Shown here: positions 7,796-8,181 of the stretch, piece by piece | Layout of the letters: every line of letters starts with the position of its first letter | How positions within the stretch are numbered: position 1 is the first letter of the stretch | IMG/VR virus record: IMGVR_UViG_643348545_000010 | From: a virus | Taxonomy: Duplodnaviria; Heunggongvirae; Uroviricota; Caudoviricetes | Direction: 5' to 3' (one strand) | Length of the DNA: 16,207 nt | Translations under genes and position numbers: made by a program | The notes under the pieces: model-generated | The model's input: the letters and a program-made list of their open reading frames with translations, nothing else | Told to the model about the DNA's origin: nothing | The model's database searches: none

Positions 7796-7819
7796 ACAAA
7801 AAGCCGGATTGCTCCGGCT
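7796..7819 (-). terminator. Rho-independent terminator after the 7839-8063 gene
   Basis: AGCCGGA-ttgc-TCCGGCT hairpin with the A-run on plus (U-run on minus). Confidence 0.7.
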
Positions 7820-7838
7820 GTATGTGCTGTATGGGTGC

Positions 7839-8063
7839 TCAGTCTCTGATCCCTTTCAGAAATTCTATCAATGCATCTGTCTGTTCAGGATTTACTGCCA
7901 GCATTTCACCGGATAGCGCGCAACGAACAAAACCATGATGATCCTTTTCAATCAGCGCCCCCGTTTCCAGAAATGCGCGGTAATCAGTGATATTCATCGT
8001 CTCCATGTTGTCAGCATGGTATTTATCACGCTGTTTAAGTATCTCATCAAATTTCATCGGCAT
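7839..8063 (-). CDS. Hypothetical small protein (74 aa) in a self-contained cassette
   Basis: ATG 8063 with AGAGGA SD; own terminators on both sides; lower GC than neighbours. No recognisable motif. Confidence 0.55.
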   Translation of the reverse strand: MPMKFDEILKQRDKYHADNMETMNITDYRAFLETGALIEKDHHGFVRCALSGEMLAVNPEQTDALIEFLKGIRD

Positions 8064-8156
8064 TGCGTTTTCCTCTGTTGTGTCTGTTTGTTTCAGATAG
8101 TAACTATGCCGGACCGTGACGAAAAGCCAGTAGTGCTCCATACCGTTTCAAATGAC

Positions 8157-8181
8157 GCAAAAAAAGCCGGATTGCTCCGGC
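8157..8181 (-). terminator. Rho-independent terminator after the PerC-like gene; near-identical copy of the 7796-7819 terminator
   Basis: Same AGCCGGA-ttgc-TCCGGCT hairpin preceded by an A-run on plus; about 26 bp identical to the other copy. Confidence 0.7.

Follow-up and report, generated by a model that had tools for sequence, protein, structure and literature searches.

An optional 74-aa gene between two copies of one predicted terminator in an EcCIEDL933-type phage satellite of Escherichia coli

Mosaic phage genomes carry conserved boundary or linker sequences at the joints between their modules, and morons of lambdoid phages were reportedly described in 2000 by Juhala and colleagues and by Hendrix and colleagues. 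Among capsid-forming PICIs (cf-PICIs), the prototype EcCIEDL933 has the same gene architecture as the DNA analyzed here (10.1101/2022.09.08.507074). The same preprint reports that mutating "hypothetical gene 1792" of EcCIEDL933 reduced transfer, a number that it leaves undefined (Alqurainy et al., 10.1101/2022.09.08.507074); it may refer to the 74-aa ORF discussed below or to the small ORF between HNH and terS. In PICIs, Tai immunity genes reside in the accessory region adjoining pri (He et al. 2024, PMC11364771, section 6), and the region beside the packaging module is variable among similar islands (He et al. 2025, 10.1101/2025.02.11.637232, section 5). As such, going by these two sections, the slot considered here is already known as variable. 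In selected sections of the EcCIEDL933 and PICI literature searched by term, the 74-aa gene is not mentioned, and a literature search by protein accession and PHROG number returned no papers on its product.

The window—i.e. the whole stretch of 16,207 nt analyzed here—is assigned by its gene content to the EcCIEDL933 type of cf-PICI, a phage satellite of E. coli. It has replication genes and its own capsid, protease, portal, connector, HNH, and terminase genes, without tail genes, according to Pfam matches and to the annotation of the most similar island (L004), which includes an integrase, an HTH regulator, replication genes, capsid, protease, portal, head-closure, connector, HNH, TerS, and TerL, with tail genes again absent. 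All genes in the studied part of the window lie on the minus strand. By megablast, this part is found in 911 of 5426 complete E. coli genomes, including O157:H7 EDL933 at 92% identity. The cassette that concerns us lies between the replication module (primase, SSB, and PerC) and the capsid operon, at the early/packaging junction (Table 1).

Twin predicted terminators at the early/packaging junction

The sequence AAAAAGCCGGATTGCTCCGGCTG (23 nt) occurs on both sides of the cassette with 100% identity, and the repeat lengthens to 25 nt with one mismatch (starts at 7796 and 8159). The preliminary description, which had reported two near-identical terminators of 24-26 bp at 7796-7819 and 8157-8181, was right within a few bases. 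When up to 3 mismatches are allowed, the 19-nt core of the repeat has exactly 2 copies in the window, while 0 are expected and none of 200 shuffles contains any.

Each copy was called as a minus-strand intrinsic terminator with a 7-bp stem, 5 G-C pairs, and a 4-nt loop. With G+C-rich stem-loops, U-runs, and positions 3' of genes, both copies are predicted intrinsic terminators; they lie 19-21 nt past the stop codons of the 74-aa gene and PerC. The T-runs after the two hairpins are TTTTTTTGCGT and TTTTTGTTATT, and in RNA these give U7 at the right copy and U5 followed by GUUAUUUUUU at the left. The RNA of the right copy folds at -15.7 kcal/mol (z = -3.6) and that of the left at -14.1 kcal/mol (z = -5.8). 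Across 27 loci, the hairpin loop is GCAA or GAAA on the transcribed strand only, both GNRA, and these two variants would fit selection on the RNA hairpin.

A duplication longer than the hairpin, for example one that includes a copied promoter, was considered and rejected: the 101 nt after the right copy and the 161 nt after the left copy align at chance level (P = 0.38). The 21-nt hairpin core AAAAGCCGGATTKCTCCGGCT is also present in more than 120 unrelated genomes among the matches listed, including Bacteroidota, Bacillota, and one archaeon, against a random expectation estimated at ~0.5 matches for species-representative genomes. The terminator sequence seems to arise convergently in many lineages, and the hairpin type seems generic.

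Table 1. Features of the junction in window coordinates, and loci with homologues of the 74-aa gene in the same slot.
Feature	Position or locus	Strand	Remarks
D5_N/DUF5906 primase	9436-11184	-	Pfam
92-aa ORF	8871-9149		
SSB	8464-8874	-	Pfam
PerC-family gene, 83 aa from MVHDR...	8205-8453	-	Pfam PF06069, E = 2e-35; last gene before right terminator; context, outside cassette
Right terminator copy (predicted)	8161-8183	-	Stem-loop 8165-8182 (AGCCGGA-GCAA-TCCGGCT), then U7; closes PerC gene and early operon
Leader of 74-aa gene	8064-8160 (97 nt)	-	Distal third variable; 58-nt block 8068-8125 almost invariant
74-aa gene	7839-8063	-	Shine-Dalgarno GAGGA at 8071-8075, 7 nt ahead of ATG
Left terminator copy (predicted)	7798-7820	-	Stem-loop 7802-7819, then UUUUUGUUAUUUUUU; closes 74-aa gene
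Non-coding gap, left terminator to capsid gene	7539-7797	-	Presumed capsid-operon control region; context only
HK97-type major capsid protein	6381-7538	-	Pfam; S78 prohead protease and portal also matched
Same-slot homologues	L005-L008		Islands with protein shared across Enterobacteriaceae
Same-slot homologues	L009-L011		Klebsiella islands with ClpP-capsid fusion
Same-slot homologues	L012-L014		Xenorhabdus
Same-slot homologue	L016 (E. coli 100117)		Diverged island; after ProQ/FinO gene; hhalign probability 99.9%
Same-slot homologue	CP018459 (L257)		16,971-bp circular Klebsiella record

Just past the left terminator, a 39-nt motif at 7753-7791 (minus strand, TTTTGTAAATTATTTGTTCGTGGTTGTTCCACGTTGTTC) contains three TTGTTC repeats spaced 10 nt apart. 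The motif follows a different terminator in the diverged island L016 and precedes all the HK97-type capsid genes examined, and is probably a control site of the capsid operon. Closer to the capsid gene, which starts at the ATG at 7538 rather than at the GTG at 7586 of the mechanical ORF list, a hairpin GUCCUGG...CCAGGAC at 7546-7575 (within a fold of -15.8 kcal/mol) is followed by U7 and then by the capsid start codon, and the only Shine-Dalgarno-like AGGA before the capsid gene sits in its 3' arm. This hairpin could be an attenuator or a translational control of the capsid gene. The same leader contains a 17-nt inverted repeat (7629-7645 and 7660-7676; 94% complementary, 14-nt spacer, -25 kcal/mol, with a z of only -2.3) that could be an operator or an RNA element.

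Elsewhere in the island, Rfam identifies a C4 antisense RNA at 12309-12396 (minus strand, 69 bits, E = 6e-12) and its a1/b1 target at 12464-12513 (minus strand, 46.8 bits). Judging by L004, an Icd-like cell-division inhibitor gene lies in the same part, and the three together look like a P1/P7 immI-type antisense control module within a cf-PICI.

The 74-aa gene, its leader, and its product

The 74-aa ORF is, judged by its dN/dS of 0.09-0.14 (window allele against the EDL933 and O55 alleles), a real gene under purifying selection. It has its own Shine-Dalgarno sequence and a lower GC than its neighbors, both as first described: the cassette is at 0.44, compared with 0.55 for PerC, 0.57 for SSB, 0.51 for the capsid gene, and 0.51 for the window. 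A longer, 100-aa reading from 8141 was rejected, given that 4 of the first 6 extension residues differ between alleles and that the distant homologues all align from the MP... start.

Comparison of the leader between the window and EDL933 alleles reveals 7 changes in the first 36 nt and 1 in the next 58 nt, with a pS of 0.29 in the coding sequence. Because this 58-nt block has a single change amid alleles that differ at 29% of synonymous sites, it is functionally constrained; it could be an activator-dependent promoter or a translation-initiation region. The leader RNA has no significant fold (z = 0.06), Rfam has no match in 7400-8300, and a search for a remnant upstream gene found no homology, in DNA or protein, between the leader and the genes upstream of the distant homologues. 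The 37-aa "trigger factor" that RefSeq places over the right terminator and leader (window ~8104-8217, L002 2197-2312, and L004 9784-9897), frameshifted in EDL933, is almost certainly a spurious call.

The putative promoter region that had been proposed for the gene could not be confirmed, as a consensus scan of the minus strand in 6300-9500 finds no sigma-70-like site. The best candidate picked by eye, TACTAT with a poor -35, is at chance level. With no sigma-70-type promoter of its own detectable, expression independent of induction is unsupported. Still, the conserved leader block could be a genuine promoter overlooked by the consensus scan, in which case independent expression would be back in play. 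We favor induction-dependent expression, through read-through or activation, since family members elsewhere lie in operons; for the family at large, the operonic distant homologues would argue against constitutive expression.

The product is small and acidic (pI 5.0) and matches phrog_1957 (E = 2.4e-40), a family with no function assigned in PHROG. Its relatives are proteins of 74-87 aa, with 22 matches by exhaustive HMMER search and 67 by profile search, and 43 of 43 members are acidic (pI 4.4-5.9). AlphaFold2, run with a 43-sequence alignment, predicts three short helices, three short strands, and a long C-terminal helix (pLDDT 90.2). Structure prediction and remote-homology search, the route first suggested for this protein, yield a confident fold and no structural or named-function match: the predicted fold has no structural neighbor in PDB or BFVD, and the protein has no Pfam and no NCBIfam family. 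PADLOC v2.0.0 (2023, and as such older than Tai) gives no match at E <= 0.1, and tblastn against 50,697 phage records gives none either. The anti-phage function suggested at the outset therefore finds no backing from PADLOC, Pfam, NCBIfam, or structural neighbors.

Other matches were followed and discarded. The weak Pfam matches are noise (DUF7002 is matched by 14 of 44 members, best E = 0.0033, and the others are scattered), and a marginal profile match to residues 83-121 of N.BspD6I, a wing-like segment within the DNA-recognition part of that protein, is uncorroborated (whole-sequence E = 0.0024). No recognizable DNA-binding fold or family, winged-helix or other, is found in the 74-aa protein, and a DNA-binding regulator was rejected as the leading idea because all 43 members are acidic. 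The product most likely binds a helper-phage or host protein—i.e. it acts in counter-defense or in helper or host manipulation—as opposed to binding DNA or being an enzyme, which we hold with low confidence, as this role is read solely from size, charge, and the absence of other signals.

A bolder proposal, which we regard as speculative and rather doubtful, is that these acidic proteins of 74-87 aa are an unrecognized, satellite-specific effector family with a new fold. Kept at the cf-PICI early/late junction across Enterobacterales, they would neutralize host defense or redirect a helper protein upon induction or entry, and the GNRA terminator would be a portable joint that shuffles effector, PerC, and capsid modules.

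Six records deposited as plasmids contain the family gene, and three of these are 16-17 kb long and resemble excised islands. For example, CP018459.1 (L257, Klebsiella, 16,971 bp), deposited as a non-mobilizable plasmid, has an integrase, replication genes, the 74-aa homologue, capsid, and terminase, along with a 3.4-kb gene annotated as a tape measure protein, and looks like an excised circular cf-PICI-like element. Two Arsenophonus records (NZ_CP038627.1 and NZ_CP123539.1), small non-mobilizable "plasmids" of ~16 kb, match the family and are characterized here by size and match alone.

Presence, absence, and age of the cassette

Alignment of homologous islands yields base-exact empty sites that keep one terminator copy, in two unrelated capsid-module backgrounds. 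In the HK97-type capsid background, the cassette is present in the window and EDL933 and absent in O145:H28 12E115, which has the capsid-upstream sequence of EDL933, a single terminator, and PerC directly after it. In the decoration-type background (major capsid plus decoration protein), it is present in O55:H7 RM12579, where homology to the window begins exactly at the left terminator, and absent in MEI4BO-21, where the decoration-type module is joined via one terminator to a PerC gene identical to that of the window (dS 0). Among IMG/VR contigs with the hairpin, both capsid backgrounds are represented, with 9 loci carrying the cassette (8 with both terminator copies and one cut at the contig end) and 13 exact empty sites. 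In the 5426 E. coli genomes, the cassette is found at 592 places and the two capsid-upstream regions at 455 and 621, which amounts to ~55% occupancy (592/(455 + 621)) on the assumption that the cassette is confined to those two capsid contexts. It is thus precisely absent from some close relatives, between conserved genes, and the 74-aa gene is dispensable in nature.

Upstream of the decoration-type capsid of O55:H7 RM12579 (L003 2290-2500), a second terminator-like hairpin (GCCCGATAAG...CTTATCGGGC) stands straight after the shared terminator. As read from alignments, a near-consensus promoter (TTGCAT, 16 nt, TATAAT) comes next, and the palindromes TTGCATAAAATGCAA and CTGATTATAATCAG overlap it; this suggests repressor control, unlike the HK97-type module.

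The gene that precedes the hairpin varies: it is SSB in the PerC-less island L141, PerC in the empty sites, and the 74-aa gene in islands that have the cassette. Three alleles of PerC each turn up in both cassette-bearing and cassette-less islands. In cassette-bearing islands, the loop variant of the right copy tracks the PerC allele, and among empty sites that share one PerC allele both loop variants occur, which indicates that crossover points inside the hairpin differ.

Divergence between the window and EDL933 is a mosaic, with dS of 0.076 for SSB, 0.27 for PerC, 0.37 for the cassette, and 0.05 for the capsid gene. Between alleles, dS ranges from 0.30 to 0.37 for the cassette and from 0.27 to 0.38 for PerC, compared with 0.05-0.08 for the flanking SSB and capsid genes. 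PerC and the cassette could have diverged together as one block, and such joint divergence would make the two-terminator arrangement older than the split of these alleles.

The slot just ahead of the gap and the capsid gene is also held by homologues (35-47% identity) in diverged islands, of which L005-L011 and CP018459 come from Klebsiella and related hosts (Table 1). These homologues lie 10-20 nt from the upstream gene or overlap it, except in L009-L011 and CP018459, where ~215 nt separate them from a helicase gene. In 3 of 4 lineages examined, a terminator lies 3' of the homologue (L005 has a weak candidate only), and none lies 5'. The distant homologues are, by this arrangement, predicted to be the last gene of the early operon, co-transcribed with the upstream gene. 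In Xenorhabdus, the gene just upstream of the 74-aa homologue is itself homologous (45% identity) to the 92-aa ORF of the window; measured against that gene order, the extra segment in the window is SSB-PerC-terminator and not the 74-aa gene. Old residence with repeated loss or swapping at the shared terminator would fit these patterns better than recent capture does. Gain by terminator exchange and loss by repeat-mediated deletion would leave an identical footprint, and the direction is one that we infer.

Between the family homologue and the capsid module, some Klebsiella islands have a convergent 170-aa ORF (6294-6806, minus strand, in L009-L011; 4061-4573 in L257). It has only three weak phage relatives, all annotated as hypothetical, and may be the slot's true variable or immunity cargo. 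With this variable ORF downstream, the family gene borders the slot, as the end of the early operon, rather than filling it. Homology to Tai/Ati was considered for both proteins and is shown for neither: tblastn against the phage collection finds no match to the 74-aa protein, and the 170-aa ORF matches only the three hypothetical phage proteins.

Remote family members (L258 and L259 5001-5255, L261 5001-5243, and L260 3830-4081) are found in other integrated elements, convergent with and adjoining an integrase at the element edge, and one of them adjoins a Type ISP/MmeI-like restriction-modification gene. These sites are cargo-like, unlike the cf-PICI slot, and the argument from a conserved slot is limited to cf-PICI-like islands.

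Given these observations, we propose that the cassette is a 363-bp unit made of one small gene and one copy of the island's standard early-operon-end terminator. The same hairpin (7-bp stem, GNRA loop, U-run) would close the early operon whatever its last gene and so form the joint to the capsid operon, and the identical sequence at every joint offers a site for homologous recombination. A crossover between the two copies within one island would precisely delete the 74-aa gene, while one between copies of different islands would swap or re-introduce the downstream content; through deletion and swapping at the joint, the gene would come to be present in about half of the islands and absent from the others. 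Its transcription would depend mainly on induction, through read-through of the PerC terminator or through an activator-dependent promoter in the 58-nt leader block. How the two-terminator arrangement first arose still calls for an illegitimate event that this proposal leaves unexplained. The explanation as a whole—an old early-operon-end gene, made optional through exchange or deletion at a shared terminator, expressed on induction, and with a protein-binding product—is the one we find reasonably probable.

The cassette had first been described as acquired by recombination at the terminator, and of this the exact empty sites stand, while recent acquisition is disfavored by the age of the alleles and the homologues in the same slot. 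The same-slot homologues at 35-47% identity bring the gene close to an ancestral one, which had been named as the outcome that would overturn that description, although some related islands lack the cassette. We consider it unlikely, then, that the gene is a recent moron captured from outside at the terminator, transcribed in the uninduced island from a promoter of its own, and beneficial through an anti-phage or host-modulating effect. Exact empty sites do exist, the GC is below that of the neighbors, the terminator is its own, and the leader block is conserved far past neutral expectation and is maybe a non-consensus promoter. Position also agrees with capture, as the remote relatives at element edges beside integrases are where cargo typically sits, the region ahead of the packaging module is portrayed as variable, with immune systems expected among its genes (in the section cited of 10.1101/2025.02.11.637232), and Tai immunity genes lie next to pri in other PICIs (in that of PMC11364771). 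However, the consensus scan found no sigma-70-like promoter, the divergence of the cassette alleles equals that of PerC and so speaks against a recent capture, and homologues hold the same slot in distant islands, where they are operonic. PADLOC and the 50,697 phage records provide no match or homologue, and a 74-aa acidic protein without an enzymatic or sensor domain is unlikely as a stand-alone defense system.

Two further readings start from the position and shape of the cassette. Several diverged island lineages have the gene right ahead of the capsid operon, and this, with the weak match to the N.BspD6I wing-like segment (E = 0.0024), could point to a core island regulator that switches on the capsid/packaging operon immediately downstream. 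Such a role is very improbable: the gene is missing from ~45% of otherwise intact-looking E. coli islands, no second family member is found in the 4-14 kb parts examined of 20 cassette-less loci, one cassette precedes two capsid modules with unrelated upstream regions, the TTGTTC motif is kept in islands without the gene, and the protein is acidic. A transposition-like or site-specific insertion, with the hairpins as a target-site duplication or attC-like sites, would account for direct repeats around a short insert, each of them a hairpin, and we give it hardly any credence. Here, the repeat is a complete, functional-looking terminator with a U-run that ends SSB or PerC in cassette-less islands, and there are no terminal inverted repeats beyond the hairpins themselves. 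Pfam detects no transposase or integron integrase among the ORFs in 4556-11184, and the L004 annotation has a tyrosine recombinase and no transposase. The loop variants of the empty sites correspond to crossovers at different points, as in homologous exchange. attC sites are far longer than the 18-nt hairpin, and the features that define transposons or integron cassettes—i.e. a local target-site duplication, or an attC with a dedicated recombinase—were not found.

The cassette compared with known systems

cf-PICIs have been described recently and are actively studied, and their prototype, EcCIEDL933, has this cassette unannotated. The exchange proposed here gives a testable picture of cf-PICI module shuffling, in which genes or whole capsid modules are exchanged or deleted at a terminator shared between the replication and packaging modules. 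Natural pairs with and without the cassette, one of them with identical PerC, are ready controls for the function of the gene. The protein family is a clean functional target, as it is conserved, selected, acidic, and confidently folded by prediction, with no structural relatives; if its members are indeed counter-defense or helper-manipulation factors, they would be a new component of satellite biology.

The window shares its architecture with EcCIEDL933, its DNA is 92% identical across the region, and EcCIEDL933 carries the cassette as WP_001132080.1, a "hypothetical protein". The window differs in its D5_N/DUF5906 primase (vs DUF927), in another PerC allele, and in a cassette allele at dS 0.37. 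As in the accessory regions described in parts of the PICI and cf-PICI literature, the cassette lies between replication genes and the packaging operon (PMC11364771; 10.1101/2025.02.11.637232). Unlike the 74-aa gene, the Tai genes characterized in those parts are larger, for example TaiEcA at 26 kDa (PMC11364771; 10.1101/2025.02.11.637232).

The likeness to lambdoid morons lies in an extra small gene between conserved modules that is precisely absent in some relatives, has a distinct base composition (GC of 0.44 vs 0.51-0.57), and has its own terminator. By contrast, the 74-aa gene stands between two copies of one terminator, and the consensus scan recognizes no promoter of its own, although a 58-nt block of its leader is nearly invariant between alleles with a dS of 0.3. 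In distant relatives its homologues sit in this slot and would be co-transcribed with the upstream operon, and it looks old and repeatedly lost rather than like added DNA. The likeness to phage boundary sequences is that a short shared sequence at a module boundary is the break-point of homology between relatives. Here, however, that sequence is a functional-looking terminator present twice in one genome, and this allows precise deletion on top of module exchange. The cassette resembles a moron in that it is optional, differs in composition from its neighbors, and ends in a terminator, and it looks like an old island gene that has been repeatedly lost or swapped. As such, it is ordinary mosaic, modular variation at a module joint of a known satellite family, and not a new type of system.
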